Of a DNA stretch of 64,000 nt, positions 3,168-62,679 are shown piece by piece (positions within the stretch are counted from its first letter, which is position 1; every line of letters begins with the position of its first letter). The DNA is taken from the IMG/VR virus record IMGVR_UViG_3300045988_103535; one strand, 5' to 3'. The translations under genes and the position numbers were made by a program. The stretch is from a virus. The notes beneath the pieces were generated by a model. That model made no database searches. It saw only the letters and a list, made by a program, of their open reading frames with translations, and was not told the DNA's origin.

Positions 3168-3857
3168 ATGAGTAAAGATATTAAAGATTTCTTGCAAGGA
3201 GTAGACAACGCAGATGCCGTTGCCAAAATTATATCTGATAACTTAAAAGATGCAAAATGTAAGTTATTCATAGACGACGGTGAGAAAAATATATTTGTAC
3301 CTAAATCTAGATTAGATGCAAAAATTGGAGAACTCAATACCGCAACTCAAACAATAACAACATTGAATGCATCAATAAAAACTCTTGAAGCTCAGGTCAA
3401 AGATGATGATAAAGCTAAAGAAACAATTCAAAGTCTACAAACAGACTTAGATAATTATAAGAAAGCATTAAAAGATAGTCAAATAGATAGCGCATTACAA
3501 TTATGTGCAGTAGAAAATAAAGCCCATGATGCAAAAGACTTAAAAGGCTTTTTAGACATGGGTAAAATCTCTATTGGAGAAAATGGAGAGGTAATAGGTA
3601 TTAAAGAACAAGTTGAAAACTTGAAAAAAGAAAAAGCATACCTATTTGAAGCTAGTGAACCTGAACCTCAACAACAAAATGGAAAAAATCCATTCAATGG
3701 TACAGGCGTGCCTGGTAAACAAGCTAGTGGCTTTGTATTCAATTCACAGACAGCACAACCTGGAGATTTCGGTAAAATGCTAGCACATCAAAATGGAGTA
3801 CCGAAGGCAGAAGAAGGTCAAAAAGTAGGACCTGAGTATTTCTTCGGTGATAATTAG
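3168..3857 (+). CDS. scaffolding protein
   Basis: Coiled-coil-rich 229-aa protein between the MuF-like and capsid genes. Strong SD. Confidence 0.6.
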   Translation: MSKDIKDFLQGVDNADAVAKIISDNLKDAKCKLFIDDGEKNIFVPKSRLDAKIGELNTATQTITTLNASIKTLEAQVKDDDKAKETIQSLQTDLDNYKKALKDSQIDSALQLCAVENKAHDAKDLKGFLDMGKISIGENGEVIGIKEQVENLKKEKAYLFEASEPEPQQQNGKNPFNGTGVPGKQASGFVFNSQTAQPGDFGKMLAHQNGVPKAEEGQKVGPEYFFGDN

Positions 3858-3881
3858 TAAATTAATTAAGGAGGAATAAAA

Positions 3882-4319
3882 ATGCCAAAATTACAAACTA
3901 GACAATATTTAGCGCCAGAACCTCAATTCTTAGCATTTCCAGACCATTATGTAAATCTACCTGGAAAAATAGAATTCGCAGAATTGGCAAAATTATATGC
4001 ATCAATGTCAAAAGCTGAAACACAAAAATTAGCAAATGTATATACTGACTCAACAAAAGTATTACCTAGAGGGTTAGCTGTTCATATAGACGGAGATGGA
4101 AAAGTAACTGCACCAGCGGCTGCAGTAACAGGTGAAGCTGATGCAGTAAAACCTAATGCAGTATTATTCAATACTATAGAATTTGGAAAATATGATGAAG
4201 CTACAGATACAGAAGTAAATGCATCTATATTAGTACATGGATTTGTAAGAGCTGATAGATTATTCGGTTCAGAAAAAGCTAATTTAGATAATGCGATGAT
4301 ATGTGTAGTAAATAAATAA
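3882..4319 (+). CDS. head decoration-like / capsid accessory protein
   Basis: 145-aa protein between scaffold and major capsid, the position of lambda D. Ala/Gly-rich beta-type sequence. Confidence 0.4.
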   Translation: MPKLQTRQYLAPEPQFLAFPDHYVNLPGKIEFAELAKLYASMSKAETQKLANVYTDSTKVLPRGLAVHIDGDGKVTAPAAAVTGEADAVKPNAVLFNTIEFGKYDEATDTEVNASILVHGFVRADRLFGSEKANLDNAMICVVNK

Positions 4320-4337
4320 TAAGGAGGGAATTTAAAA

Positions 4338-5456
4338 ATGGCAGTAATAAAAAATTTATTTGATTATATAAACGCAACTGACATAGCTGCTTATGTTACA
4401 GAAAAACCTGAAAATAAAGTCCCTTATTTTGCAGAAACATTATTCCCAGCTCAAAGACAACTGGGTACAGATATATCTTGGCTAAAAGGAGCTAATGGTT
4501 TACCAGTAGCAATACAACCTAGTGAATATGATGTTAAAGCAAGATTAAGAGAAAAAACTGGATTTGAAGGCGTAGCAACTGAAATGGCATTCTTCAGAGA
4601 AGCTACAAGAATAGGTGAAAAAGATAGACAGCAATTAAATATGTTATTAAACAACCCTGAACAACAAATGGCAATGCCTATAATAAGAAACATATTTGAT
4701 GAAGTTTCTAGATTAGTAGAAGGTGTTAGAGTACAAGGTGAGTACATGAGATGTCAATTACTAACAAGTGGTAAAATAGACGTAACTTCTGCTGACGGTA
4801 GAGTTAAATATGTATATGACTATGGTCAACAAAATTTATTCAAATGCAAAAAAGGTCAAGCAGCTTGGGGTGAAGCAAATGATACCGCTGACCCTGTAAG
4901 AGACATAATAGCTTGGTGTGATTATATGGAAACATTAAGAGGTATTAGACCAACTAGACTTGTTATGAATAGAAATACATTCTTAAATATGGTGCGTTCT
5001 CCTAAAGTTCACAAAATGATGTACCCAAACGATTCAGCATTGAACTATTTCGTGTCTGATGCTCAAGCAAAATCATTTATAGAAACAACTACAGGTTGTA
5101 CTATATTTGTATACACTAAGAAAATAACAACATTATCACATGATACAGGTATAGCAACTGGAACTCCAGTAAATCTAATACCTGACGGTAAAGTTGTAGT
5201 ATTACCACCTAGAGCTTCATTAGGTTCTACATGGTATGGTACAACACCTGAAGAAAGTGACCTTATGACAGGTTCTGATGCTCAGGTGTCAATAGTTAAC
5301 AACGGAACTGCAATAACTACTTACAAAGAAAGACATCCGGTTCAAGTTGTAACAGTAGTTTCTTCAGTTATGATACCTTCATTCGAAACAATAGACGATT
5401 GCGCAGTAGCTGATGTTACTGAAGTATCAACTGATGCTACTACAGAAATAAAATAG
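4338..5456 (+). CDS. major capsid protein (lambda E-like family)
   Basis: Size, position and N-terminal 'AVIKNLFDYINATDIAAYV...VPYFAETLFP' are typical of E-family capsid proteins. A strong terminator follows. Confidence 0.8.
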   Translation: MAVIKNLFDYINATDIAAYVTEKPENKVPYFAETLFPAQRQLGTDISWLKGANGLPVAIQPSEYDVKARLREKTGFEGVATEMAFFREATRIGEKDRQQLNMLLNNPEQQMAMPIIRNIFDEVSRLVEGVRVQGEYMRCQLLTSGKIDVTSADGRVKYVYDYGQQNLFKCKKGQAAWGEANDTADPVRDIIAWCDYMETLRGIRPTRLVMNRNTFLNMVRSPKVHKMMYPNDSALNYFVSDAQAKSFIETTTGCTIFVYTKKITTLSHDTGIATGTPVNLIPDGKVVVLPPRASLGSTWYGTTPEESDLMTGSDAQVSIVNNGTAITTYKERHPVQVVTVVSSVMIPSFETIDDCAVADVTEVSTDATTEIK

Positions 5457-8285: not shown

Positions 8286-11200
8286 ATGGCAGGAACAGAT
8301 TTAGGTACTATTGTCGCCCACCTTAACCTCGATGTCAATCAATTTCAAAATGGAGTGCAACAAGCTCAGCAACAATTAGAAAATGCAAGTTCAGGTTTTG
8401 ATAGAGTTGCGAATGCAGGTAGGAGATTACAAGGTATAGGAGCAGGGTTAACCGCAGCAGTTACAGTTCCAGTAGCAGGAATTGCAAAATCCGCATATGA
8501 TGTAAATAAAGCATTCCAGTCTTCTATGTCTAATGTTCAAGCATTGTCTGGTGCAACTGGAAAAGATTTACAAGACCTTACTAATTTAGCTAGAGAAATG
8601 GGAGCTACTACTCAATTTAGTGCTTCAGAGGCGGCAGACGCACTTGGTTACATGGCGCTTGCAGGTTGGAATTCTAAAGAATCAATGAAAGGTTTACCAG
8701 GAGTCTTAAACTTGGCTGCGGCGTCAGGTATGGAGCTTGCAGATGCATCAGATATGGTTACCGATTATCTATCAGCTTTTGGTCAAGGTGCTGACCAAGC
8801 AGGACGAATGGCCGATGTACTTGCATACGCACAAGCTCATTCTAATACAACAACTGCCGGTTTAGGTGAAGCGTTCAAGAACTGTGCGGCTAATGCACAT
8901 GCTTTTGGTTTAGATATAGAACAAACAACAGCTTTAATAGGAAAACTATCAGACCAAGGGTTAAAAGGTTCTGAAGCAGGTACTGCATTAACTGCGATGA
9001 TGCGTGATATTACCCAAAAAATGAAAGACGGAAAAATACAAATAGGAAAAACAGCTGTATCGGTACAGGATTCAAATGGTAATTTCCGAGACATGACCGA
9101 CATATTAGGTGATGTAGAAAAAGCTACTAATGGAATGGGAGATGCACAAAAGAATGCCGCCTTAATGGGAACATTTACTGCCGACTCAATAAAAGCATTA
9201 AACATATTATTAAATACAGGTAGCGGAAATGTAAAAGACTTTGAAAAAGCATTGAGAGGTAGTAAAGGGTCAGCTGAGGAAATGGCTAAAACTATGAATG
9301 ACAACTTAGAAGGTGACTTGAAGTCTATGAATTCAGCTATTGAAGAATGTTATCTAACTATGATGGAAAAACTAGACCCAGTACTGAGATTAATAGTTCA
9401 AGGAATTACAAAATTAGCACAAGGTTTTTCAAAAATTCCACAACCTATAATGATAGTCATAATGAGTATAGCAGGCATACTTGCAGTACTAGGTCCACTA
9501 TTAGTAATAATAGGTACAGTAATGACAAAAGCAGAAAAATGTGTTGAAGTTATTAATAGATTTAGAGCATTCAGACAAGCAGGCGGATTTGCACGAATAT
9601 TCTCTACCGCACTCAACGGAGTTCGAACAGCTTGTACTCGAGTTGTAAGTGTTATAACTGGAACAGTAATTCCAGCACTTCAATCATTATGGGCATTTTT
9701 ATTAGCAAATCCAATAGTACTTGTAATAGCGGCTATCGTGGCATTAGTTGCAAGTTTCACTTATTTATGGAATCATTGCGAAGCCTTTAGAGCATTTTGG
9801 ATTAAGTTATGGAAAGACTTCTTAATGGCAGTTCAAAGTTTTTCACCGGCATTAGCAGGAGTTTTTAAAGGTCTTGGAAATGTTATATCAGGTTTTGTAA
9901 ATATTATTCAAGCGTTATTAGGTGGAATAAAAGATATATTTGTAGACATATTCACAGGTAACTTTGATAAAATACCTGAAGACTTTGCACAAATGGGAGA
10001 AAAATTGCAAGATGCAATTAATAAAATATTTGACGGTTTAGGTCAAATAGCACAAAATGCCATGCAAGCACTACAAGATGTATTCATGAATGGACTGAAT
10101 ACATTATTTGACCCAATTATAAATTGGGGATATTCAATATCAGGTGCATTTGGAGATGCAATGGTCGATTTATACGCAGTATTTAAAGACGGTTTTGACC
10201 TTATACTCGACTATTGGAGAGACGTAGGTTCTATTTTGAAGGATTTATTCTCAGGTGACTTTGAAGGCGCACTGCAAGGCGTACAGAACTTATTTTCTCA
10301 TTTAGGAGAAAATGTACTTAATGTATTACAAGACTTAGGAACATTTGTAGTTGATATATTCAGAAGTATAGGCGAAGGTATTACGAATGCGCTATCATCT
10401 GCATGGAATTCAATTACAAGTTGGTTCAGTCAATTAGGTTCTTCTATAATGACTATATTATCAAATGGATTAAGTGCAATAGGTGACTTTTTTAATAACC
10501 TACCTAGTATGATAGGAACTGCGATAGGAGTTGTAGGAGGTGTAATAGCAAGTGCAATAGTAAATGGTTGGAATTTTATTACTCAAACTGTACCTACATA
10601 TTTTACACAAATAGGTCAATGGTTCTCACAATTACCTAGCATGATAGGACAATGGTTGACTGATACGTATAATAGAGTTGCAGAATGGGCTGGTCAATTA
10701 CCTGGCAAAGCTCAAGAAGCTGGCTCAAGATTTATCGAAAGTGCTAGTAATTACTTTACTCAGTTACCTTCAAGAATTGGTAACTGGTTAACTCAAACAT
10801 ATAATAGAGCTAGTCAATGGGCAAGTCAAATGTGGACAAAAGCACAGCAAGCGGGTTCTCAATTTGTGAGTAGAGCATCAAGTGCATTATCTCAACTACC
10901 TGGAAGAATATGGAGTTATTTATCAAGTTGTATTTCAAGAGCAATTAATTTTGCTTCTCAATTTGCTAGTAAAGGTATGCAAGCTGCCTCTAATTTTAAG
11001 AACAGAATATTAAGTGGACTTAGAAGTATACCTTCTCAAGTAGTAGGAATAGGTAGACAAATAGTTCAAGGTTTATGGAATGGAATTAAAGGAGCTGGCA
11101 GTTGGCTAAGAGGTCAAATAAGTAGTTTTGCTAGTAGTGTAGTAGCTGGGTTTAAATCTTCATTTAAAATACATTCACCATCGGGAGTTATGAGAGATGA

Positions 11201-23877: not shown

Positions 23878-24651
23878 ATGTCGAGTAAAATAAACAATCA
23901 TAAATTAGTACATGGCAGTACTATTGGTCATGCCAGCGTTGTTGTTAGAGATTTAATGACTTCAGGTAAAGTAGTGCCAAGTTATTCATTAACACCTTCA
24001 TATATTACAATTCATAATGTCGGCGACGATGATGTTCCAGGTGTGACATGGGATAAAGCATTACGTAATGCTAATAAATATGGTAAATCTGGAGGTTATA
24101 GAATAGCATCGTGGCATGTTACAGTAGACTATAATAAAATATATCAAGAAATACCATTTAACAAAGTAGCATGGCACGCAGGCGACGGAGAATACGGAAA
24201 AGGAAATAGACATTCAATAGGTATAGAAAACTGCCAGTATTCACGTGATAAAACAAAACAAAAATTAGTCTGGGAAAATTGCGCAGCCTTATGCGTTGAA
24301 CTAACAAAAGAATATTCTATACCAACTAACCATATAGTACAACATTATTATTGGACTAAAAAAGATTGCCCATATTTATTAAGACATAAACGTTTTGGAT
24401 ATGACTGGACTTGGTTTATGAATTTAGTAAAAGGAGCAAAACCAGTAGACACAGAATTCAAATCTTATGTAGTTAGAATAATAGTAGACGAGTTAAATAT
24501 TAGAACAGGTCCTTCTACCTCATATGAAAAAGTTGGCGAACTTCACAAAGGCGACGCATACACAATAATAGAAGAAAAAAACAACTGGGGTAGACTTAAA
24601 TCTGGAGCCGGTTGGATTTCATTAAGTAATAAATATGTAGAAAAAATATAA
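23878..24651 (+). CDS. endolysin: N-acetylmuramoyl-L-alanine amidase (Amidase_2/PGRP) + SH3b
   Basis: Motifs 'ITIHNVG', 'SWHVTVD', 'AWHAGDG', 'HSIGIENC' and 'HYYWTKKDCP'. The C-terminal 'LNIRTGPSTSYEKVGELHKGDAYTIIEEKNNWGRLKSGAGWISL' is SH3b-like. Confidence 0.9.
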   Translation: MSSKINNHKLVHGSTIGHASVVVRDLMTSGKVVPSYSLTPSYITIHNVGDDDVPGVTWDKALRNANKYGKSGGYRIASWHVTVDYNKIYQEIPFNKVAWHAGDGEYGKGNRHSIGIENCQYSRDKTKQKLVWENCAALCVELTKEYSIPTNHIVQHYYWTKKDCPYLLRHKRFGYDWTWFMNLVKGAKPVDTEFKSYVVRIIVDELNIRTGPSTSYEKVGELHKGDAYTIIEEKNNWGRLKSGAGWISLSNKYVEKI

Positions 24652-34781: not shown

Positions 34782-34793
34782 GGAGGAATGAAC

Positions 34794-37697
34794 ATGGAAT
34801 TAAAAAATTGGCTAGACACGCAGTTAGGTCAAGATATTTGGACTAGAAAATATCAAAATGGAGACGAGACATTCGACCAATGGCTTGATAGAGTATCAAA
34901 TGGAGATGATGCTGTCAAAGATTTAATATTAAGTAAAAAATTTATATTCGGAGGTAGAATATTAGCATCAAGAGGAATTACTGACAGAAAAGTAACTTAT
35001 AGTAATTGTTATGTATTACCTCCAGTAGGTGACAGTATAGAAGAAATATACGACACTAATAAATACTTGGCAAGAACATTTTCATACGGTGGAGGTTGTG
35101 GTATTGATATATCACAACTAAGACCCAAAGGTTCACCAGTTAATAATGCTGCATTGACAACAACTGGAGCAGTTTCATTTATGGAAACATTCAATAATAC
35201 TTCACAGACTATAGGACAAAAAGGTAGACGTGGAGCATTAATGATAAGTATGGACGTAAACCATGCGGAAATTGAAGATTTTATAAACGCAAAAACTCAA
35301 AATGAAAAATTAGAAGAATGTAATATCTCAGTAAGAACAGATGAATCATTTATGAATAGAGTAATAGATGGAGACGATAATGCAAATAAATTAATGTATA
35401 AATTAGCTGAAAATAACTGGAACTGGGGAGAACCTGGAATGTTATTTTGGGATAATATTAATAAAGAAACATTATTATCTGAGTATATAAAGAATGGCAA
35501 GTTTGAGTTTGCAGGAGTTAACCCATGTTTAGTAGGTGATACACTAATACAAACTATAGAAGGTGCTAAACCTATAAAAGATTTAGTAGGAACTCAACCC
35601 TATGTTTACTGCATGAACGATGAAGGTAAATTAATTATCAAGCAAGCAAGTAAAGTATGGAAAACTAGAGAAAATGCAGAATTAGTTGAAATTGATTTTA
35701 ATAGAGGAAAACTAATTTGTACACCTGACCATAAAATATTTACTAGAAATAGAGGCTGGGTAAAAGCAGTAGATTTACAACCTAAAGATAAATTAAATGG
35801 GTTAGGATTTAGCAAAGGAAATGAAATAGACGAAGTTGTTAAACTATCATCTGATGCAAAATACTATAAACATCATAGATTCATAATGGAACAAATGGGA
35901 TTTGATATTAAGAATAAAGACATACATCATAAAGATGCAAACCACTTAAATAATGTATACAGTAATTTAGAAGTACTAGAACATGATAAACATAGTAGAC
36001 ATACTAATTTAGGTCATAAGTGTTACGCTGACAAAGATTTAGCAACTGGTCAATTTATAGCTAAAGCAGTCAAAGCTAAAACTAAAAAAACTAATAGTGT
36101 TAATCATGTTAATACAGGTAAAAACTTTATAGTAAAATCAGTTACAAAATTAAATTATACTGCTGATGTGTATGACATGACAGTTAAAGGAGTACACAAT
36201 TTTATAGCTAATAATATAATAGTTCACAACTGCGCAGAAGAGCCATTGCCAGCTGGAGGCAGTTGTTTATTAGGTTCACTTAATTTAGCAGAATTTGTAA
36301 AAGACCCATTCGGTAAGAGACCTGCATTTGATATACCTAGTTTTAAACAAGCTGTAAAAGTAGCAATACGAGCATTAAATCAAGTATTAGACGAGGGGTT
36401 ACCATTACACCCATTACAAATACAAAGAGACTCAGTTGCAAAATGGAGACAAATAGGTCTTGGCATTATGGGATTTGGCGACATGCTTATCAAAATGAGA
36501 ATACCATATGGAAGTGATAGATGTTCTAATTTAATAGCAACAATAGGTATGGCATTATGTAATGCTGGACTTCAAGAGTCAGCTTTACTTGCAAAAGAAT
36601 TAGGTACATTCGAAGCATATAATTCAGACTATATACTTAGCTCATTTTATTTACAAAGTAAAATAAAAGAAGGCGTAATATATGAAGAAACTATTGACTT
36701 AATAAAAGCTCATGGTCTTAGAAATAGTCAATTATTTACAATAGCACCAACAGGTAGTATAGGTACTATGTTCGGTGTATCAACTGGAGTCGAACCTATA
36801 TATGATGTCAACGGTTTTGCAAGAACAACAAAATCATTAAACGCTGAGGATAAAGTTTACATGGAATACCCAAATATTGTGCAACGAGCAATTGAAGCTG
36901 ACGATATCGACATGCTAAATAATAAACCGGCATATTTGATAGGAGCAAAAGACTTAGACTTTATGAGTAGAGTAAAAACTCAAGCCGATTGGCAAGTGTG
37001 GATTGATGCTAGTATTTCTAGTACTTTAAATTTACCTAAAGAGTCTCCAGTTGAAGACGTATTTAAAGCATATGTTGCCGCACATGAATTAGGTTGTAAA
37101 GGCTTAACTGTATTCAGAGACGGCTGTAAAAAAGAAGGTATTTTAAAAGGAGTAGCTAAAGAGGAAAAACCTGAACCTACTCAATTAAATGCAATCGACA
37201 CCGACATAAATCATTGTATTGCATTTGGCAGTAAACTGCAAACAGGTTGTGGAAGTTTATGGATGACTGTATATTTCCATAAGAAAACTGGTCAACTATG
37301 CCATATATTCTTAAACAAAGGAAGTAAAGGCGGTTGTAATAGTTATATGGTAGGTTTATCAAGACTAATATCATTAGCAGGTAAAAAAGGAGCAACTGTT
37401 GAAGAAATTGTCGACCAACTAAAATCCGTTGTGGCTTTTCCTTCATTTTTAAGTAGAAAAACAACTGAAGCAAGTATTAGTGACGGCAGAAGTTGTGCAG
37501 AGGCAGTAGGTAGAGAGTTGTTAAAATTACACGAGCAATTTAAACTAAATTATCTTAATCAACCTGAAATTACTCAACTTAAAATTGATAATGAGGTAAA
37601 AATTGAAATTGCAAAATGTCCCGAATGTGGTGCAGAATTAAGTCATACAGGTGGCTGTATTAATTGTTATAATTGCGGTTGGACAAAATGCGATTAG
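34794..37697 (+). CDS. nrdJ: class II (adenosylcobalamin-type) ribonucleotide reductase, interrupted by an intein
   Basis: Exteins join to '...GVNP|CAEEPLPAGGSC', restoring the NPCxE active-site loop. Also contains 'TVFRDGCKKEGIL' and a C-terminal zinc ribbon 'CPECGAEL...CINCYNCG'. ATG at 34794 preferred (7 nt after AGGAGG). Confidence 0.85.
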   Translation: MELKNWLDTQLGQDIWTRKYQNGDETFDQWLDRVSNGDDAVKDLILSKKFIFGGRILASRGITDRKVTYSNCYVLPPVGDSIEEIYDTNKYLARTFSYGGGCGIDISQLRPKGSPVNNAALTTTGAVSFMETFNNTSQTIGQKGRRGALMISMDVNHAEIEDFINAKTQNEKLEECNISVRTDESFMNRVIDGDDNANKLMYKLAENNWNWGEPGMLFWDNINKETLLSEYIKNGKFEFAGVNPCLVGDTLIQTIEGAKPIKDLVGTQPYVYCMNDEGKLIIKQASKVWKTRENAELVEIDFNRGKLICTPDHKIFTRNRGWVKAVDLQPKDKLNGLGFSKGNEIDEVVKLSSDAKYYKHHRFIMEQMGFDIKNKDIHHKDANHLNNVYSNLEVLEHDKHSRHTNLGHKCYADKDLATGQFIAKAVKAKTKKTNSVNHVNTGKNFIVKSVTKLNYTADVYDMTVKGVHNFIANNIIVHNCAEEPLPAGGSCLLGSLNLAEFVKDPFGKRPAFDIPSFKQAVKVAIRALNQVLDEGLPLHPLQIQRDSVAKWRQIGLGIMGFGDMLIKMRIPYGSDRCSNLIATIGMALCNAGLQESALLAKELGTFEAYNSDYILSSFYLQSKIKEGVIYEETIDLIKAHGLRNSQLFTIAPTGSIGTMFGVSTGVEPIYDVNGFARTTKSLNAEDKVYMEYPNIVQRAIEADDIDMLNNKPAYLIGAKDLDFMSRVKTQADWQVWIDASISSTLNLPKESPVEDVFKAYVAAHELGCKGLTVFRDGCKKEGILKGVAKEEKPEPTQLNAIDTDINHCIAFGSKLQTGCGSLWMTVYFHKKTGQLCHIFLNKGSKGGCNSYMVGLSRLISLAGKKGATVEEIVDQLKSVVAFPSFLSRKTTEASISDGRSCAEAVGRELLKLHEQFKLNYLNQPEITQLKIDNEVKIEIAKCPECGAELSHTGGCINCYNCGWTKCD
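35526..36230 (+). mobile_element. intein (235 aa) with HNH-type endonuclease domain
   Basis: Starts with Cys ('CLVGDTLIQTIEGAKPIKDL'). Ends '...NNIIVHN' before the +1 Cys. Internal 'HHKDANHLNNVYSNLEVLEHDKHSRH'. Confidence 0.8.
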
Positions 37698-42395: not shown

Positions 42396-43352
42396 ATGTT
42401 ATTCGATTATTCTGAAATAAAAGGTTATACTAGATTTAAGTATAACCCTGAAAATGTAAAAATTGCTACTGAGTTAATACAGGCACAACCTTATATGCTT
42501 TATTCATTTTCAATAGCAGAACTATTTAGCTATTATGATAGTGATAGAAGAAGACTTTATATTAATAAAGACTATAAAGAAACTGGAGACATAATTTTAA
42601 TATCAATTACTGGAAAATATAGTAAAAAGGCAGAGATGATTTGCCCATTATGTAGTAATGAAAGGTTGTATAAAGAAATGAAAGCAATACCTATGCCAGT
42701 TAAAGTTTCATTCGTACCTGCAGCACAATCTAAAGAATTTATTACTCAATATAAAGATACACAAAGAACTAGAACTGCAGGTGACTTTGTGTACGACTTA
42801 GAAGACATATCTAAATTGCAAGGTGGTAAATGGCATAGTAGTAGAAAAAAGGTAAAAAGAGCACAAAAGAATTTAACCTGGAGATACGCAACATATGAAG
42901 ACTATGATTTAATAATGAATTTTTTACAAACATGGCTAAATGACTGCAAAAGCACAGAACGATTATCAAGACCGGCAATAGGTAGAGATAAAAATTTAAT
43001 AAACTTCATATGGCAGAATAAATTATTAGAAAAGAACCCATTTTATATAGTATTAGTATTTTATGAAGGAAAACTAGATGCAATTAATGTTACTGAGTTA
43101 TCATTATTTAATAGAGAGTGGCAATTAGGTATATTGGAAAAATCACTTCGCCAATATAATTTGAGTGGCTTTTATGTAGGTTGGTTATGTGAGGATATTG
43201 GCTATCATGAAGGCAGAAAATTTGATAATGCATCAGGTCCGTATCATGATATGTATAATAAAGACGGAATTAATGACCATAAAATGCTATTTAAACCTAT
43301 AGATTTTTATTACTCATACACAATAGAATTTAAAAAGAATTCCAAAAAATAG
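42396..43352 (+). CDS. DUF2156-like (MprF C-terminal / aminoacyl-tRNA-dependent transferase-like) protein
   Basis: 'GDFVYDLEDISKLQGGKWHSSRKKVKRAQKNL' resembles the DYxYxxxxLxxLxGxxxxxxRxxxxxF core of that family. ~300 aa, consistent with a tandem-GNAT size. By-eye call only. Confidence 0.4.
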   Translation: MLFDYSEIKGYTRFKYNPENVKIATELIQAQPYMLYSFSIAELFSYYDSDRRRLYINKDYKETGDIILISITGKYSKKAEMICPLCSNERLYKEMKAIPMPVKVSFVPAAQSKEFITQYKDTQRTRTAGDFVYDLEDISKLQGGKWHSSRKKVKRAQKNLTWRYATYEDYDLIMNFLQTWLNDCKSTERLSRPAIGRDKNLINFIWQNKLLEKNPFYIVLVFYEGKLDAINVTELSLFNREWQLGILEKSLRQYNLSGFYVGWLCEDIGYHEGRKFDNASGPYHDMYNKDGINDHKMLFKPIDFYYSYTIEFKKNSKK

Positions 43353-43381
43353 TTAACATTATACTGTAAAAATTGTATATT
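43352..43381 (+). promoter_or_regulatory. GTTAACA-type promoter upstream of rSAM-like/QueT operon
   Basis: GTTAACA-N17-TATATTATAAGTA. Confidence 0.55.
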
Positions 43382-43389
43382 ATAAGTAC

Positions 43390-43448
43390 GTGGAGTAGTT
43401 TTCCTAATCCTGCTCCACTATAAAAATATTAAAACAGGAGGTTCTAAA
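43390..43448 (+). promoter_or_regulatory. preQ1-I-riboswitch-like leader (hairpin + A-rich tail + SD-sequestering pairing)
   Basis: GUGGAG(UAG)-UUUUCCUAAUC-(CUG)CUCCAC, then UAUAAAAAUAUUAAAAC, then AGGAGG. Loop UCCU/UCCUG is complementary to the SD AGGA/CAGGA. Confidence 0.35.
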
Positions 43449-44204
43449 ATGGACGAAATGAAAAGATATGGCATTGTTAATGATGCTAAAGAACAAATGG
43501 AAGTTGTATTATTAAGAGGTACTGGGTGTGAATGGGCTCAATGTAATTTCTGCGATTATTGTATTGACCATGATAAAAATACAGAAGCAGACTATCAACT
43601 TAATGCAAAAGTATTAGACAAAGTTACTGGCATACACAATAAGTTACAAGTAATATGCAGTGGAAGTTTCGCAGAATTAGATAGTAAAACTATTGAGTAT
43701 ATTCACAAAGTAGTAACTGAAAAGAAAATATCAACTGTAATATTTGAAGGACATTATATGCACAGAAAATTTATAAAATTTATGAGATTAATTTTTAGTG
43801 GCATAAATCTAGAGTTTATAGTAGGCGCAGAAACTTTTAATTTATTCAATCGTGAAGCTATATTGAATAAAGGAATGGGAGTGGCAAGTCCTCAAAGTAT
43901 TAGTAAATATTTTAATAGAACTAATTTATTATTCGGTTGGAAAGGTCAAACATATGAGTCTTTCTTGGAAGATGTTGAATTAGGTCTTAAATATTTCGAC
44001 AAAATTTGTATTAATGTATTTACTCCTAATACAACAAAATTTGAGCGAGATGAAAAATTAGTACAACAATTTTATAATTCTACTGAGTTTCAAGAATTAT
44101 TAGCAAATCCTAGAGTAAGAATAATTGATGACTTAAATCGAGATATTACAGATACATTCGATTTAGTCGGAGAAAAATTGTCTAAAATAGGAGGTACTAA
44201 ATAA
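43449..44204 (+). CDS. radical-SAM-like enzyme (non-canonical Cys cluster)
   Basis: N-terminal 'VVLLRGTGCEWAQCNFCDYC' (Cx4Cx2Cx2C). ~250 aa, TIM-barrel-sized. It does not show the QueE 'QGEG' pattern. Confidence 0.4.
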   Translation: MDEMKRYGIVNDAKEQMEVVLLRGTGCEWAQCNFCDYCIDHDKNTEADYQLNAKVLDKVTGIHNKLQVICSGSFAELDSKTIEYIHKVVTEKKISTVIFEGHYMHRKFIKFMRLIFSGINLEFIVGAETFNLFNREAILNKGMGVASPQSISKYFNRTNLLFGWKGQTYESFLEDVELGLKYFDKICINVFTPNTTKFERDEKLVQQFYNSTEFQELLANPRVRIIDDLNRDITDTFDLVGEKLSKIGGTK

Positions 44205-44701
44205 TGAAAGTAACAGTAAAATCAATGTGTAGAATAAGCATAGTAGCCGCACTTTATTTTGTAATAACAATGGTATGTAAACCTTTTGTATTCGGACCGG
44301 TTGAATTCAGATTATCCGAAATGTTAAATTTCTTAATGTTTATAGACCCAATATATATAATAGGAATTACATTAGGTTGTGCATTGAGTAACTTCTTTAC
44401 ATTTGGAGTTATGGACGTATTTATAGGTTCAGCTTCTACATTCCTTGTAGGTGTTCTAATGTGGAAAGGCAAAAGAATGTGGTATGGAATTCCAATAGCA
44501 ACATTAGGTACAAGTGTAATTGCTTGGGAATTATGGTTTTTCTTTGGTTTACCATTTTGGTATCAATTTGCTGTTGGAGCATTTGGCGAATTTGTAAGTA
44601 TGGTACTTGGATATATTGTAGCTGTAAAATTATTCAAGAACGAAGGTTTACTAAATATATTTAGATGTACACCTGGCAATAATAAAGAAGTAAAATATTA
44701 G
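44204..44701 (+). CDS. queT: QueT-like queuosine-precursor transporter (ECF S-component)
   Basis: 'ISIVAALYFVITMVCKPFVFGPVEFRLSEMLNFL' matches the QueT N-terminal signature (AALY...F.f..iqFRiSE). 5-6 TM segments. Confidence 0.65.
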   Translation: MKVTVKSMCRISIVAALYFVITMVCKPFVFGPVEFRLSEMLNFLMFIDPIYIIGITLGCALSNFFTFGVMDVFIGSASTFLVGVLMWKGKRMWYGIPIATLGTSVIAWELWFFFGLPFWYQFAVGAFGEFVSMVLGYIVAVKLFKNEGLLNIFRCTPGNNKEVKY

Positions 44702-44711
44702 AAAAAATATA

Positions 44712-44743
44712 ATGAGTAGGGTTAACAACCTTACTCATTTTTT
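44712..44743 (+). terminator. terminator whose loop carries the next promoter's GTTAACA
   Basis: ATGAGTAGG-gttaaca-ACCTTACTCAT followed by TTTTTT. Confidence 0.65.
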
Positions 44744-44752
44744 ATATATAAC
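44721..44752 (+). promoter_or_regulatory. GTTAACA-type promoter (TATATAAC variant) upstream of dpdA-like gene
   Basis: GTTAACA-N17-TATATAACATACATAA. Confidence 0.5.
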
Positions 44753-44782
44753 ATACATAAATAAAAAAGGAGGAAAAAAGAT

Positions 44783-45700
44783 ATGGATTTGTATTTTGCA
44801 GGACAAGGTCAAATAGCATCAGACGTATTTATATCAAAACTTCATGTTAATAGACTTTACTCATTCTTAGATGGGTCTAGATGTATTAATAGGTGGATTG
44901 GTCTTACAGAAGGTCAAACTGACTCAAAATTATTTTTAGACTCAGGTGCATTTACTGCTCATACAAAAGGTAAAACTGTTAATGTTGATGAATATATTGC
45001 TCGAATAAATGAGTTAGACGAACATCTTACATTATATGCACAACTTGATACAATCCCAGGTGAATATAAAAAACCTAAGACTATACAACAGTTAAAAGAA
45101 GCGCCCGAATTGAGTTGGCAAAATTATTTATATATGAAAGACAAAGTAGCAAATAGAGATAAATTATTGTCTATATTTCATCAAGGAGAAGACTTTAAAC
45201 ATTTAAAAAGAATGTTAGAATATAGACATGAAGACGGTGAGCCAATAAAATATATTGGAATATCACCTGCCAATGATGTTGTAACTCAGTATAAAGATAA
45301 ATGGTTTGCACAGGTATTTGGAATTATAAAAAATTCCAGTAACCCAAACGTAAAGACGCATGCATTTGGAATGACTTCAAAATTAATGTTAGAAAAATAT
45401 CCATTTACTTCTGCTGATGCAACTACATGGTTAGTGCATGCTCGTATGGGAACATTACATTTCGGTGATAACAATATTGTAGTGTCTGACAGGAAAACAG
45501 ATGACCCAAATTTTTATAAAAATTTAGGACCTGAAATGATAAAAGCATTTGAAGACAAAGTTGAAGAACGAGGTTTAGACTTAGACTTGATGATGACTTC
45601 TTGTCATTATAGAAGTAGATGGGAAGCATTAGAATTAGTTGAGTGGCTACAAAATTATGAGTATAAAGGTAGTACAAAATTTCAAAAACGATTATTTTAG
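44783..45700 (+). CDS. dpdA: DpdA / tRNA-guanine-transglycosylase-fold protein (putative DNA 7-deazaguanine transglycosylase)
   Basis: 'FLDSGAFTA' versus TGT 'DSGGFQ'. 'SADATTWLVHARMGTLHF' versus TGT 'MFDCVxPTRxARNGxLF', with identical D-x7-AR-x-G spacing. No TGT zinc site is obvious, as in DpdA. Confidence 0.6.
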   Translation: MDLYFAGQGQIASDVFISKLHVNRLYSFLDGSRCINRWIGLTEGQTDSKLFLDSGAFTAHTKGKTVNVDEYIARINELDEHLTLYAQLDTIPGEYKKPKTIQQLKEAPELSWQNYLYMKDKVANRDKLLSIFHQGEDFKHLKRMLEYRHEDGEPIKYIGISPANDVVTQYKDKWFAQVFGIIKNSSNPNVKTHAFGMTSKLMLEKYPFTSADATTWLVHARMGTLHFGDNNIVVSDRKTDDPNFYKNLGPEMIKAFEDKVEERGLDLDLMMTSCHYRSRWEALELVEWLQNYEYKGSTKFQKRLF

Positions 45701-55833: not shown

Positions 55834-56550
55834 ATGTTTACATTACAAGATTTCAAAGTAAAGTTAGTAAATGGAGAAGAGGTTAAAAGTTTTATAAAGA
55901 AACATGGAGAATTCGCAGCTGTATGCTACAATACACCATTAGATAGAGCAGAAAAAGTTGGCGAACATTGTTTAAAAAGTGGTCATATGTCAGGTTCAAG
56001 ACATTTATTCTTTGTATTTGAACTAAAAACAGTACCTAGAAGTGCAGTCGACCAATTAGTTAGACATTATACAGGATTTGTTCCTAATGTACAAAGTTTA
56101 AGATATTGTAATAAAGACGGTAAAGTTAATATATATGCGGCACCTGAACTATTACAAAATGAATACATGGTAAAAACAATACAAGACCAAGAAAATATTG
56201 TAAATGCACAATATAATTATATTCAAACATATTTAGAAGAAGCAGGTATAACTGGAGAAAAAGCTAACGAAATAGCTAGAACTATACTGCCAATAGGTGT
56301 TGCTACTGAGTGCAGTATAGCTTGTAATATAGAGTCTTTAATACATTTAGCAAACCTTAGATTATGTACTAGAGCTGAATTACCAATTAGAACTATAATA
56401 AAACAAATGGTCGACCAGGTAGTTGAAGTTGAACCTAGATATAAACCATATTTAGTTCCTCAATGTAAAAAATTAGGTTATTGTCCAGAGAGCAATAAAA
56501 ATTGCCCTAGATACAAATTAAATAATAAGGAGGTCAAAAAGCATGAATAA
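55834..56550 (+). CDS. thyX: flavin-dependent thymidylate synthase ThyX
   Basis: 'SGHMSGSRHLFFVFELKTVPRSAVDQLVRHYTGFVPNVQSLRY' fits the ThyX core (RH..x8-S motif region). Confidence 0.8.
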   Translation: MFTLQDFKVKLVNGEEVKSFIKKHGEFAAVCYNTPLDRAEKVGEHCLKSGHMSGSRHLFFVFELKTVPRSAVDQLVRHYTGFVPNVQSLRYCNKDGKVNIYAAPELLQNEYMVKTIQDQENIVNAQYNYIQTYLEEAGITGEKANEIARTILPIGVATECSIACNIESLIHLANLRLCTRAELPIRTIIKQMVDQVVEVEPRYKPYLVPQCKKLGYCPESNKNCPRYKLNNKEVKKHE

Positions 56551-57004: not shown

Positions 57005-57337
57005 ATGAAAAAAGAGTTATACAATTCAATAATATCACAAATGAGTAAAACATATGAAGCTAAAAATGTTGACTATGGAGACTCAGTTGGCGACACATAT
57101 AATAAATTCGGAGATGTATCATTCTTAACTAGAATTACTGACAAATACAATAGAATATTATCATTGTCAAATAAAGGCGAATGTGGAGAAGTAAAAGACG
57201 AGAAATTAGACGATACAATATTAGACTTAGCTAATTATTGTGTTCTATGGTTAGTTGAGAGAGAATATAAATCAACTCCAAAATCTGAAACTTTAGCTGG
57301 ACTGACTAAAACATTTTTAAAAAGTTCTTATAAATAA
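57005..57337 (+). CDS. DUF1599-like helical protein (nucleotide-modification-associated family)
   Basis: 'AKNVDYGDSVGDTYNKFGDVSFLTRITDKYNRILSL...DDTILDLANYCVLWL' resembles the DUF1599 pattern. By-eye call. Confidence 0.4.
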   Translation: MKKELYNSIISQMSKTYEAKNVDYGDSVGDTYNKFGDVSFLTRITDKYNRILSLSNKGECGEVKDEKLDDTILDLANYCVLWLVEREYKSTPKSETLAGLTKTFLKSSYK

Positions 57338-61896: not shown

Positions 61897-62679
61897 ATGA
61901 ATAATAATGAGAAATATAAATTATATAATGGTGACTGCTTGGCAGTTATGGATAAACTAATTGAACAGGGAGTAAAGGTGGACGCAGTAATATGCGACCC
62001 ACCTTACGGAACTACTGCTTGTAAATGGGATTCAGTTATACCTTTAGATGAAATGTGGGAAAGATTAAATAAATTAATAAAAGATAATGGCGCTATATGT
62101 TTATTTGGGAATGAACCCTTTACTAGCAAATTAATATGTAGCAATTTAAATAGCTTTAAATATAGATGGGATTGGAATAAAAAAATCCCAAGTGGTATGG
62201 GATATGCAAAATATAGACCAATGCAACAAACTGAAGACATATGTGTATTTACTAAAAATGGAGAAAAAACAATATATAATCCACAGATGATTAAAAGAAA
62301 AAAACCTATAAAAAGTGGAGGCAACACTATTCAAGCAGGTGTTTATAGTGGTTTTAAATGTATGGGCGAAGGAAAAGAGTATAAAAAGACATATGAATAT
62401 AAAAACCCAACTACATTAATCGAATTTGATAAGATAAGAAAAGGAAGTGTGCATCCAACTCAAAAACCAGTAGATTTATTAGAATATTTAATTAAAACAT
62501 ATACAAATGAAAATGATTTAGTATTAGATTTTACTATGGGCAGCGGTAGTACAGGAGTTGCTTGCTTAAACACTACTAGAAAATTTATTGGCATAGAAAT
62601 AGATGAAAAATACTTTAATATTGCTAAAGATAGAATGAAAGCTGCTGCATTAGGTAATAAACAGAAGAAACTATTTTAA
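61897..62679 (+). CDS. orphan DNA methyltransferase (N6-adenine/N4-cytosine type, DPPY)
   Basis: 'VICDPPYGTT' (motif IV) precedes 'VLDFTMGSGSTGVAC' (motif I). No restriction endonuclease partner is present. Confidence 0.85.
   Translation: MNNNEKYKLYNGDCLAVMDKLIEQGVKVDAVICDPPYGTTACKWDSVIPLDEMWERLNKLIKDNGAICLFGNEPFTSKLICSNLNSFKYRWDWNKKIPSGMGYAKYRPMQQTEDICVFTKNGEKTIYNPQMIKRKKPIKSGGNTIQAGVYSGFKCMGEGKEYKKTYEYKNPTTLIEFDKIRKGSVHPTQKPVDLLEYLIKTYTNENDLVLDFTMGSGSTGVACLNTTRKFIGIEIDEKYFNIAKDRMKAAALGNKQKKLF

Follow-up and report, generated by a model that had tools for sequence, protein, structure and literature searches.

A probable salvage-fed 7-deazaguanine DNA modification module in a gut-type relative of Streptococcus phage Dp-1

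The IMG/VR virus record IMGVR_UViG_3300045988_103535, analysed here over a stretch of 64,000 nucleotides (the window), is a gut-type relative of Streptococcus phage Dp-1. It carries an island of four genes that, judged from sequence comparison, is probably the Dp-1-type module for 7-deazaguanine DNA modification in a form fed by salvage. Base synthesis by five genes is replaced by a transporter and a queuine-cleaving enzyme, which makes a scavenged micronutrient the probable source of the phage's protective DNA base, and a rare additional enzyme (P1) may attach an amino acid to the modified base. In the literature searched, we found no description of a phage QueL or phage DUF2156 gene linked to DpdA.

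Results

The four genes of the initial annotation are present as plus-strand open reading frames (ORF1 to ORF4), all under purifying selection (pN/pS 0.06-0.30 against near relatives), and the peptides that it cited are all found in the translations: DFVYDLEDISKLQGGKWHSSRKKVKR in ORF1, CEWAQCNFCDYC in ORF2, AALYFVITMV...FGPVEFRLSEML in ORF3, and LDSGAF and D-x7-ARMG in ORF4. The genes and the elements between them are:

42396..43352, + strand: P1 (ORF1, 318 aa), a stand-alone DUF2156 tandem-GNAT protein and putative aminoacyl-tRNA-dependent transferase, first in the DpdA module
43353..43381, + strand: promoter-like site TTAACA-17-TATATT ahead of QueL (consensus scan, 10/12 positions; a consensus match only)
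43390..43441, + strand: leader of the QueL-QueT unit, with a 9-bp hairpin (43390-43418), an A-rich tail and the SD AGGAGG (43436-43441)
43449..44204, + strand: QueL (ORF2, 251 aa), radical-SAM queuine lyase orthologue by sequence (queuine to preQ1)
44204..44701, + strand: QueT (ORF3, 165 aa), substrate-binding S component of an ECF transporter for queuosine precursors
44711..44739, + strand: terminator-like hairpin between QueT and DpdA, with a 13-bp stem and a T run after it (consensus scan and sequence)
44783..45700, + strand: DpdA (ORF4, 305 aa), DpdA1-type DNA guanine transglycosylase of the Dp-1 clade

QueT, as ORF3 had been called, is borne out by Pfam PF06177 (E = 1.4e-30, 106.9 bits), the profile proposed for checking it, by phrog_27044 (E = 3.9e-27) and by Dp-1 gp6 QueT (33% identity). 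Its start overlaps the stop of QueL. ECF A/T components were not found among the window ORFs scanned, and QueT would work with a host ECF energising module to import queuine and/or preQ1.

ORF2 is, by its homology, an orthologue of the queuine lyase QueL, which converts queuine to preQ1 (PMC11130926; PMC12632869; bioRxiv 10.1101/2023.12.05.570228). In a phmmer search, residues 3-220, nearly the full length, align with PDB 6P78 ‘queuine lyase’ (E = 1.7e-42). At 40% identity, ORF2 shares with bacterial homologues the triad C27-x4-C32-x2-C35 and about 30 further invariant positions. The phage QueLs form a clade of their own, 41-44% identical to the bacterial homologues and carrying a C-terminal extension of ~30 residues relative to them. 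Bacterial members of the family occur widely among gut Clostridia, where a Q-precursor (QPTR) transporter adjoins the gene in 78 of 80 loci. ORF2 had been described as radical-SAM-like and not QueE, which stands, but its supposed tailoring role of unknown kind does not, since it belongs to the QueL family; a new radical-SAM tailoring enzyme was rejected on the same 6P78 match. No Pfam entry whatsoever was matched, Radical_SAM included. The only NCBIfam match was RaSEA TIGR01210 (E = 1.5e-10), at 40.8 bits far under the cut-off of 212, and RaSEA was rejected as only a distant relative. QueE was also rejected, by tblastn with Dp-1 and a QueE HMM. QueK was not found among the window ORFs scanned, and nucleoside Q would hence not be usable without host help.

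The initial annotation had claimed that folE, queD, queE and queC are absent and that the island relies on salvage rather than synthesis. In the window, neither tblastn with Dp-1 proteins nor HMMs (3-4 phage homologues each) run against the six-frame translation found these genes or queF, the sole exception being a 14.7-bit match of the QueE profile to ORF2 that reflects radical-SAM-core similarity only. With QueT and QueL present and the de novo genes absent, salvage is supported. The order is PolA, QueF-C-D-E-FolE, QueT, DpdA, DnaN in Dp-1 and contig L011; PolA, QueL, QueT, DpdA, DnaN in L106, L005 and the window, the last of these alone with P1 after PolA; and PolA, QueL, QPTR, DpdA, DnaN in L016. 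In this lineage QueL occupies the genomic position at which Dp-1 carries QueF/QueC/QueD/QueE/FolE, all of which it replaces. Four independent phage sub-lineages have QueL and a transporter in precisely this place, between PolA and DpdA.

The identification of ORF4 as DpdA holds, by routes other than the Pfam profile suggested for it. Neither Pfam TGT PF01702 nor any PDB profile was matched, and hhalign gave no significant match to E. coli Tgt. ORF4 matches phrog_887 ‘queuine tRNA-ribosyltransferase’ (E = 1.4e-45) and Dp-1 gp7 (43.7% identity, E = 8e-77), CAjan and 9g-like DpdAs were matched by tblastn, and its subfamily aligns with the validated CAjan DpdA at a probability of 99.9% (E = 1.4e-34, hhalign). 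Across the subfamily D53 (DSGA) and D212 (SAD) are invariant. DpdAs of the Dp-1 clade accompany QueF in Dp-1, Flasso, L010 and L011, and natural DpdA-QueF fusions occur in P0114 and P0149. By analogy, this DpdA would insert preQ1 and yield dPreQ1; that the DpdA enzymes assayed so far insert preQ0 (PMC10516641) counts against this.

P1 matches PF09924 (LPG_synthase_C/DUF2156) at 32.5 bits against a gathering score of 27.5 (E = 6e-8), in line with its earlier description as DUF2156/MprF-C-like. Its family profile finds PDB 2HQY (E = 1.5e-22), with MprF/LpiA domains next, and in Foldseek the AF2 model (pLDDT 87.7) matches 2HQY at a TM of 0.73-0.78 and MprF, FemX and Sbb17 at 0.54-0.66. The aa-tRNA-binding alpha(+) helix, a basic inter-domain helix at residues 144-159, is kept, which agrees with the aminoacyl-tRNA-transferase-like core that had been pointed at. 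Because of the analogy with every characterised DUF2156 domain, the donor is most likely aminoacyl-tRNA. P1 has a pN/pS of 0.06-0.08. It is an optional cassette, dispensable for the module (it is missing in L005, L016, L106 and Dp-1), and phages with QueL identities of 84%, 75% and 55% lack it. Its repeated placement in DpdA clusters suggests that it further derivatises the deazaguanine, and it may, by analogy, aminoacylate (d)preQ1.

The leader folds at -16.9 kcal/mol (z = -2.8) and its hairpin is kept in L005, with one compensatory change from A-U to G-C. No Rfam family was matched, PreQ1 included, and the leader could be an SD-sequestering regulatory element. The terminator-like hairpin between QueL-QueT and DpdA makes separate transcription units possible.

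Alternative explanations

This separation from DpdA, with a promoter-like site, leader and hairpin of its own, would suit QueL and QueT as auxiliary metabolic genes that raise host tRNA queuosine for translation tuning and do not feed DpdA, which would then use host pools or have an independent supply; bacterial QueL and transporters do serve tRNA-Q salvage. We regard this as unlikely, given that QueL and the transporter occupy the slot of the de novo preQ1 genes in all four sub-lineages, that no QueL-bearing phage contig without DpdA was seen, and that DpdA could in any case draw on whatever preQ1 is made. A route modelled on ArcS/RaSEA, in which 7-deazaguanine would receive an amino acid from P1 and the adduct would then be processed by the radical-SAM enzyme to a new or archaeosine-like base, had been offered as a precedent, and the adjacency of ORF1 and ORF2 in the window, the aminoacyl-transferase type of P1 and the RaSEA match all fit it. 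That match is, however, far below its cut-off, whereas 6P78 is matched nearly end to end, and the partners of ORF2 homologues in bacteria are transporters, not transferases. P1 is a clean ~970-bp insertion between the PolA stop (42382) and 43350, in a pre-existing PolA/QueL junction. Each gene also occurs without the other, QueL-QueT/QPTR-DpdA without P1 in L106, L005 and L016, and P1 without QueL in other DpdA clusters (L006, L010, L011, L014 and L021); the two are thus inherited independently, and comparative genomics contradicts the coupling, which we consider highly improbable.

A larger share of doubt attaches to P1 itself, which may be unrelated to deazaguanine: a tRNA- or acyl-CoA-dependent transferase acting on a host lipid (as MprF), a protein or a PolA-linked replication factor, at a junction tolerant of cassettes. 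The known DUF2156 acceptors are all lipids (PMC7334510), the closest structure (2HQY) is of unknown function, and P1 behaves like a mobile cassette that follows PolA in nearly every context. We hold this to be possible and still somewhat less probable than a role in the module. The family is soluble and basic (pI 8.1-9.4), with no membrane segment, and related tRNA-dependent tandem GNATs have amine acceptors (Sbb17/streptothrisamine, FemX). A search of 1.84 billion representative proteins gave only 15 matches to the family at E <= 0.001, and all recovered contexts long enough to interpret are DpdA-bearing phage contigs, with DpdA within about 6 kb of P1 in every one and directly abutting it in L010 and L021. 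PolA linkage and DpdA-module linkage can be told apart in L014 only, the two being neighbours elsewhere, and there P1 lies inside the deazaguanine cluster, away from the polymerase, which is of a different type.

Discussion

In the salvage-fed module that we favour, imported queuine would be cleaved to free preQ1 by the radical-SAM enzyme QueL, and DpdA would replace guanines of the replicated phage DNA by preQ1, the resulting dPreQ1 shielding the DNA against host nucleases. P1 would be a separate, optional step that further derivatises the deazaguanine, most plausibly at the primary amine of preQ1 or dPreQ1.

Among the closest known systems is the Dp-1 module (gp72, gp1-gp7). In Dp-1 DNA, Hutinet et al. 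2019 (PMC6884629) measured dPreQ1 at about 1.7% of G but no dPreQ0. Both phages share a backbone and its order (SSB, PolA, module, DpdA, DnaN, Cas4, RecU, dUTPase, UvsX, clamp loaders), their DpdA and QueT are 44% and 33% identical, and the end product dPreQ1 is probably common to both. Dp-1 differs in having the QueF/C/D/E/FolE set where the window has QueL, and in lacking a DUF2156 gene. The initial annotation did not recognise the combination of DpdA with a transporter, an aminoacyl-transferase-like gene and a radical-SAM-like gene; the pairing of DpdA with a transporter is known already, as Dp-1 has QueT and a YhhQ-like gene beside DpdA, whereas the QueL and DUF2156 genes had no match in the GenBank phage records searched.

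Indirect queuine salvage in Clostridioides difficile is described as QueK-QueT-QueL (Yuan et al. 2019, as cited in PMC11130926). The phage and the gut Clostridia loci alike place a QueL homologue beside a Q-precursor transporter, but the downstream user is the tRNA bTGT in bacteria and the DNA transglycosylase DpdA in the phage, which also lacks the QueK of C. difficile. RaSEA is a distant radical-SAM relative of QueL, and both act on C7 side chains of 7-deazaguanine; in contrast to the archaeosine route, the window has no ArcS, P1 is not ArcS-like and its inheritance is separate from that of the radical-SAM gene.

With the MprF C-terminal domain, LpiA, ErdS and 2HQY, P1 shares the double GNAT fold, the basic alpha(+) helix between the halves and a conserved C-terminal G-x4-K-x4-P motif, but it is stand-alone and soluble, without a flippase or membrane domain or an aaRS fusion, and is phage-encoded in a DNA-modification and replication context. 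The phage preQ1-tailoring enzymes DpdM (methyl) and DpdN (formyl) (Cui et al. 2023, PMC10516641) are likewise optional accessory genes of DpdA clusters and act on the preQ1 aminomethyl group, the role proposed for P1, although the P1 fold is unrelated and its donor is probably aa-tRNA. Phage Mu Mom carries out a Gly-tRNA-dependent hypermodification of dA (PMC13219725). It works on adenine N6 as a single-GNAT dimer and is unrelated at the sequence level to the tandem-GNAT DUF2156 protein P1, but as a phage GNAT-superfamily enzyme that uses a charged tRNA to acylate a DNA-base amine it provides a mechanistic precedent for P1.

Genome context

The window is a tailed-phage genome with a G+C content of approximately 30% and almost all long ORFs on the + strand, and its gene order is in common with that of Streptococcus phage Dp-1: SSB, PolA, a variable module, DpdA, DnaN, Cas4, RecU, a hypothetical protein, dUTPase, UvsX and clamp loaders. 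The four ORFs that the initial annotation had described as a 7-deazaguanine island were all found at their coordinates, and every motif peptide quoted for them is present in the translations.

Genes of the island
42396-43352, + strand, P1 (ORF1), 318 aa, DUF2156 protein
43449-44204, + strand, QueL (ORF2), 251 aa, homologue of PDB entry 6P78
44204-44701, + strand, QueT (ORF3), 165 aa, PF06177
44783-45700, + strand, DpdA (ORF4), 305 aa, homologue of phrog_887 and Dp-1 gp7

The endolysin (23878-24651), with Amidase_2 and SH3_3 domains, and the presence of QueT, an ECF S-component, point to a Gram-positive, Firmicute-type host. No tRNA genes were found in the window, and no terminal repeats at its ends. 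The ribonucleotide reductase large subunit (34788-37697) is split by an intein with an HNH endonuclease domain. The window also encodes ThyX (55834-56550), a DUF1599 'nucleotide modification associated domain 1' protein (57005-57337) and an N6/N4 DNA methyltransferase (61897-62679), and the phage may carry DNA modifications other than deazaguanine.

A probable queuine salvage pair in place of preQ1 biosynthesis

By homology, ORF2 is a queuine lyase (QueL). phmmer aligns its residues 3-220 to residues 22-235 of 6P78, which was submitted to the PDB under the name 'queuine lyase' (E = 1.7e-42, 40% identity). The radical-SAM triad C27-x4-C32-x2-C35 is invariant in all nine phage, bacterial and PDB sequences compared, and around 30 further invariant positions are common to QueL and its phage and bacterial homologues. 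QueL is the radical enzyme of indirect queuine salvage and converts queuine to preQ1 (PMC11130926, PMC12632869, bioRxiv 10.1101/2023.12.05.570228), an activity that the phage protein would be expected to have as well. For ORF2, described earlier as radical-SAM-like, Pfam-A gave zero matches, Radical_SAM included. Because of this blank, and because the GenBank label of a phage homologue with 73% identity (P0021) reads just 'putative Fe-S oxidoreductase', QueL is overlooked by standard annotation pipelines. Two other assignments of ORF2 were rejected: RaSEA (TIGR01210), which scored 40.8 bits against an NCBIfam equivalog cut-off of 212.15 with the N-terminal half alone aligned, and QueE, for which tblastn gave E = 0.009 over 56 aa and the phage QueE HMM 14.7 bits.

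Homologues of QueL are present in at least 427 species-level genomes, chiefly of gut Clostridia, and in 78 of 80 bacterial loci from this group a gene for the queuosine-precursor transporter QPTR/Vut_1 is no more than 300 bp away. Phage QueT had zero tblastn matches in these 80 loci, and the pairing of QueL with QueT, as found in the phage and C. difficile, is a minority arrangement within this sample. In the window the QueL stop codon overlaps the QueT start, and in one related phage contig (L016) QueL is paired with QPTR.

ORF3 is assigned unambiguously to QueT by its match to PF06177 (106.9 bits against a gathering threshold of 33.7, E = 1.4e-30, profile positions 2-139 of 141), the profile against which the initial assignment was to be checked. 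No energising (A/T) components of an ECF transporter were found among the window ORFs scanned, including Pfam scans of 30 further ORFs, and the T/A/A' module for QueT would have to come from the Firmicute-type host. The scans of the 30 further ORFs also returned no QueK-type nucleoside hydrolase, and neither QPTR nor an SDR is present in the window. The de novo genes folE, queD, queE, queC as well as queF are absent from the window by tblastn with the Dp-1 proteins and by a search of its six-frame translation with HMMs built from three or four phage homologues each, in agreement with the salvage-type DpdA island proposed initially.

QueL and QueT look like a transcription unit of their own.

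Putative transcription signals around QueL and QueT
43353-43381, + strand, promoter-like site ahead of QueL
43390-43441, + strand, conserved leader upstream of QueL, made up of a 9-bp hairpin, a tail rich in A and an SD (AGGAGG)
44711-44739, + strand, strong terminator-like hairpin between QueT and DpdA

The loop of the leader hairpin, TCCT, could pair with the SD AGGAGG. The hairpin is retained in the related contig L005 with one compensatory change from A-U to G-C, and a second type of hairpin, laid out in the same way, is found in the leaders of L016 and L106. A preQ1 riboswitch was rejected on the basis of empty Rfam searches, PreQ1-I/II/III included, at E <= 1 over 4 kb and at E <= 10 over 116 nt. 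No preQ1 riboswitch was found in the L106 leader or upstream of 14 bacterial QueL genes; an 11-bit PreQ1 match outside the L106 leader is due to chance. The leader may be an unclassified riboswitch-like element.

The transglycosylase

ORF4 is placed in the DpdA family by matches to phrog_887 (E = 1.4e-45) and Dp-1 gp7 (43.7% identity), by tblastn matches to DpdAs from CAjan as well as from 9g-like and iggy-like phages, and by alignment of its subfamily profile with the genetically validated CAjan DpdA (hhalign probability 99.9%, E = 1.4e-34). D53 in the DSGxF motif and D212, the second Asp, which precedes R-x-G, are invariant in nine subfamily members. The initial annotation had read ORF4 as a TGT/DpdA protein; its membership of the DpdA family is shown here. 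The Pfam TGT profile (PF01702) gave no match. The alignment with E. coli Tgt (hhalign probability 0.6%) is not significant, and there the DSGAF segment alone aligns to the catalytic DSGGFQ. The subfamily profile matched no solved structure in the PDB, and the deeper kinship of DpdA with the TGT fold comes from published HHpred work (PMC6884629). A pN/pS of approximately 1.0 for the DpdA and DnaN of L005 was disregarded as artefactual, since the sequences had been compared without gaps across indels.

In two natural fusion proteins, P0114 (548 aa) and P0149 (522 aa), a DpdA of this clade is joined to QueF domains (PF14489/PF14819), which connects the transglycosylase with preQ1 formation in the Rosetta-stone sense.

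A conserved DUF2156 cassette

P1 is a genuine DUF2156 protein, as had been suggested. It scores 32.5 bits against PF09924 (DUF2156/LPG_synthase_C; gathering threshold 27.5) with only residues 112-189 aligned, and the domain is also detected in five relatives (P0001, P0002, P0004, P0005 and P0008). In the PDB, a 12-member family profile matched first the stand-alone DUF2156 structure 2HQY (E = 1.5e-22) and next the synthase domains of MprF/LpiA. The AF2 model (pLDDT 87.7, pTM 0.86) has a double GNAT fold, for which Foldseek returned 2HQY at TM 0.73-0.78. Aminoacyl-tRNA-dependent transferases (MprF/A-PGS/L-PGS, FemX and Sbb17/Sba18) follow at TM 0.54-0.66, with MprF/A-PGS/L-PGS at about 0.62-0.66, whereas acetyl-CoA tandem GNATs fit more poorly (TM 0.42-0.53). 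The segment singled out initially turns out to be the basic alpha(+) helix modelled at residues 144-159 at the GNAT I/GNAT II junction, GKWHSSRKKVKRAQKN, in which 7 of 16 residues are K or R; G143 is invariant in the family and R150 nearly so. In DUF2156 enzymes this basic helix binds aminoacyl-tRNA (PMC7334510). MprF itself, a bifunctional aminoacyl-phosphatidylglycerol synthase and flippase with an N-terminal membrane domain and a lipid acceptor, was rejected as an identity for P1, which is hydrophilic (318 aa, GRAVY -0.60) and has no extra domain.

P1 is under strong constraint, with a pN/pS of 0.06-0.08, the same as PolA. Family members have a pI of 8.1-9.4 throughout and lack hydrophobic segments, features more in keeping with the binding of nucleic acid than with lipid substrates. 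The family is very small: a search of 1.84 billion representative proteins yielded only 15 matches at E <= 0.001, P1 and P0005 had no tblastn match in GenBank phages, and the family has no close match in the viral structure library. The alignment of 12 family sequences contains no block of sufficient conservation for scanning, and a scan of IMG/VR with a P1 subfamily alignment found nothing. All P1-family contigs long enough to judge are DpdA-bearing phage contigs; three contexts are too short to inform beyond the immediate neighbours.

Module variants between PolA and DnaN

The content of the variable module was compared among the window, reference phages and related phage contigs.

Gene content of the module between PolA and DnaN
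Dp-1 and L011: (QPTR-like), QueF, QueC, QueD, QueE, FolE, QueT, DpdA
Bacillus phage Flasso: QueC, QueD, QueE, FolE, QueF ... DpdA
Window and its near-identical IMG/VR relatives L002-L004: P1, QueL, QueT, DpdA
L106 (QueL 84% identical) and L005 (75%): QueL, QueT, DpdA, without P1
L016 (QueL 55% identical): QueL, QPTR, DpdA, without P1
L006, 4997-9287 (L007 and L008 likewise): P1 (59% identical), Vut_1/QPTR, 37-aa ORF, SDR, two tandem DpdA paralogues
L010: P1-like, DpdA, QueF, QueC, QueD, QueE, FolE
L011, 7297-9224 (L012 likewise): a tandem pair of diverged P1-family paralogues (319 and 321 aa), upstream of the full QueF/C/D/E/FolE/QueT/DpdA set
L021: PolA, P1-like, DpdA
L014: P1-like, ..., QueC, ..., FolE, ..., DpdA; downstream, a polymerase of another kind, fused to UDG

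QueL and a transporter are a positional, and presumably a functional, replacement of the five-gene preQ1 supply arm, and this replacement is seen again in several sub-lineages with either transporter family (QueT or QPTR). P1 and QueL are inherited independently. Homology of the window to its P1-less relatives ends at the PolA stop codon (42382) and restarts at 43350, and P1 is hence a cassette insertion of approximately 970 bp.

QueL, QueF and QueC are all absent from L006, in which the SDR may provide an alternative, non-radical processing of a salvaged precursor and the presence of two DpdAs hints at two specificities, for sequence or for substrate. The P1 paralogues of L011 may differ in donor or acceptor specificity. 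The replication module of L014 differs, though a P1-like gene and DpdA are present, and a UDG-domain DNA polymerase is encoded at 8545-9351. The FolE of L014 (401 aa, 3779-4984) is fused to an N-terminal HNH endonuclease-like region.

Proposed pathway and product

We propose that queuine and/or preQ1 would be imported by QueT with the ECF module of the host, that QueL would release free preQ1 from queuine, and that DpdA would exchange G in phage DNA for this preQ1. The homology of QueL and DpdA is shown here; the activity of the former and the substrate of the latter are those we would predict. Speculatively, P1 would draw on an aminoacyl-tRNA to acylate preQ1 or dPreQ1 at the primary amine. 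We consider dPreQ1 formation by QueT, QueL and DpdA to be somewhat probable, and action of P1 on the deazaguanine to be rather unlikely.

dPreQ1 as the product is supported by Dp-1, the DNA of which contains dPreQ1 at approximately 1.7% of G and no dPreQ0 (PMC6884629), and by the regular companion of the window DpdA's clade, a preQ1-forming enzyme that is even fused to it as QueF in P0114 and P0149. On the other side, the DpdAs tested to date all insert preQ0 (PMC10516641), and preQ1 acceptance by DpdAs of the Dp-1 clade was explicitly left open by Hutinet et al. (PMC6884629). A DpdA fed by QueL in a phage lacking QueC and QueF would therefore argue that the clade accepts preQ1 itself.

For P1, the initial annotation had envisaged an ArcS/RaSEA-like coupled route in which its action is followed by radical-SAM chemistry. 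This coupling is not sustained, given the sub-threshold RaSEA score and the independent inheritance of P1 and QueL. Tailoring after preQ1 formation has precedents: the preQ1 amine is the site tailored by DpdM and DpdN (PMC10516641), the phage GNAT Mom uses Gly-tRNA on DNA (PMC13219725), and Sbb17 and FemX, both Foldseek matches of P1, show that amine acceptors exist for its fold. P1 as a new phage enzyme family that transfers an amino acid from charged host tRNA to the 7-aminomethyl group of preQ1 (before insertion) or of dPreQ1 in DNA is a proposal that we regard as doubtful.

Comparison with known systems

Queuine is a gut micronutrient for which animals and many bacteria compete. If the pathway is correct, the phage would be the first virus to make a protective DNA base from scavenged queuine, tying the anti-restriction of phages to the availability of gut nutrients. 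The exchange of five biosynthetic genes for one shows the supply arm to be modular and exchangeable, with QueT and QPTR swapped likewise across sub-lineages. Both QueL and P1 are missed by current annotation. The DUF2156 cassette, which is rare and under strong conservation, is a candidate both for a deazaguanine decoration of a new kind and for a novel use of charged tRNA. Were P1 to act as proposed, virion DNA would contain a previously unseen aminoacyl-7-deazaguanine, a product of new chemistry. P1 would then join Mom as the second known class of DNA hypermodification that depends on tRNA, would be the first of these to act on a deazaguanine, and would give the DUF2156 enzymes their first non-lipid acceptor.

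Full-text searches returned no paper linking phage DpdA to QueL, queuine lyase or DUF2156, and an earlier mention may exist. Hutinet et al. considered only possible uptake by YhhQ, for phages with DpdA alone (PMC6884629). The window provides a natural variant for the question raised there in 2019, whether DpdAs of the Dp-1 clade insert preQ1 or dPreQ0 is reduced on DNA, and makes it testable because QueL would supply free preQ1 to a phage without QueC and QueF. The island would work like the dPreQ1 system of Dp-1, but with the indirect queuine salvage pair of bacteria as its supply arm.
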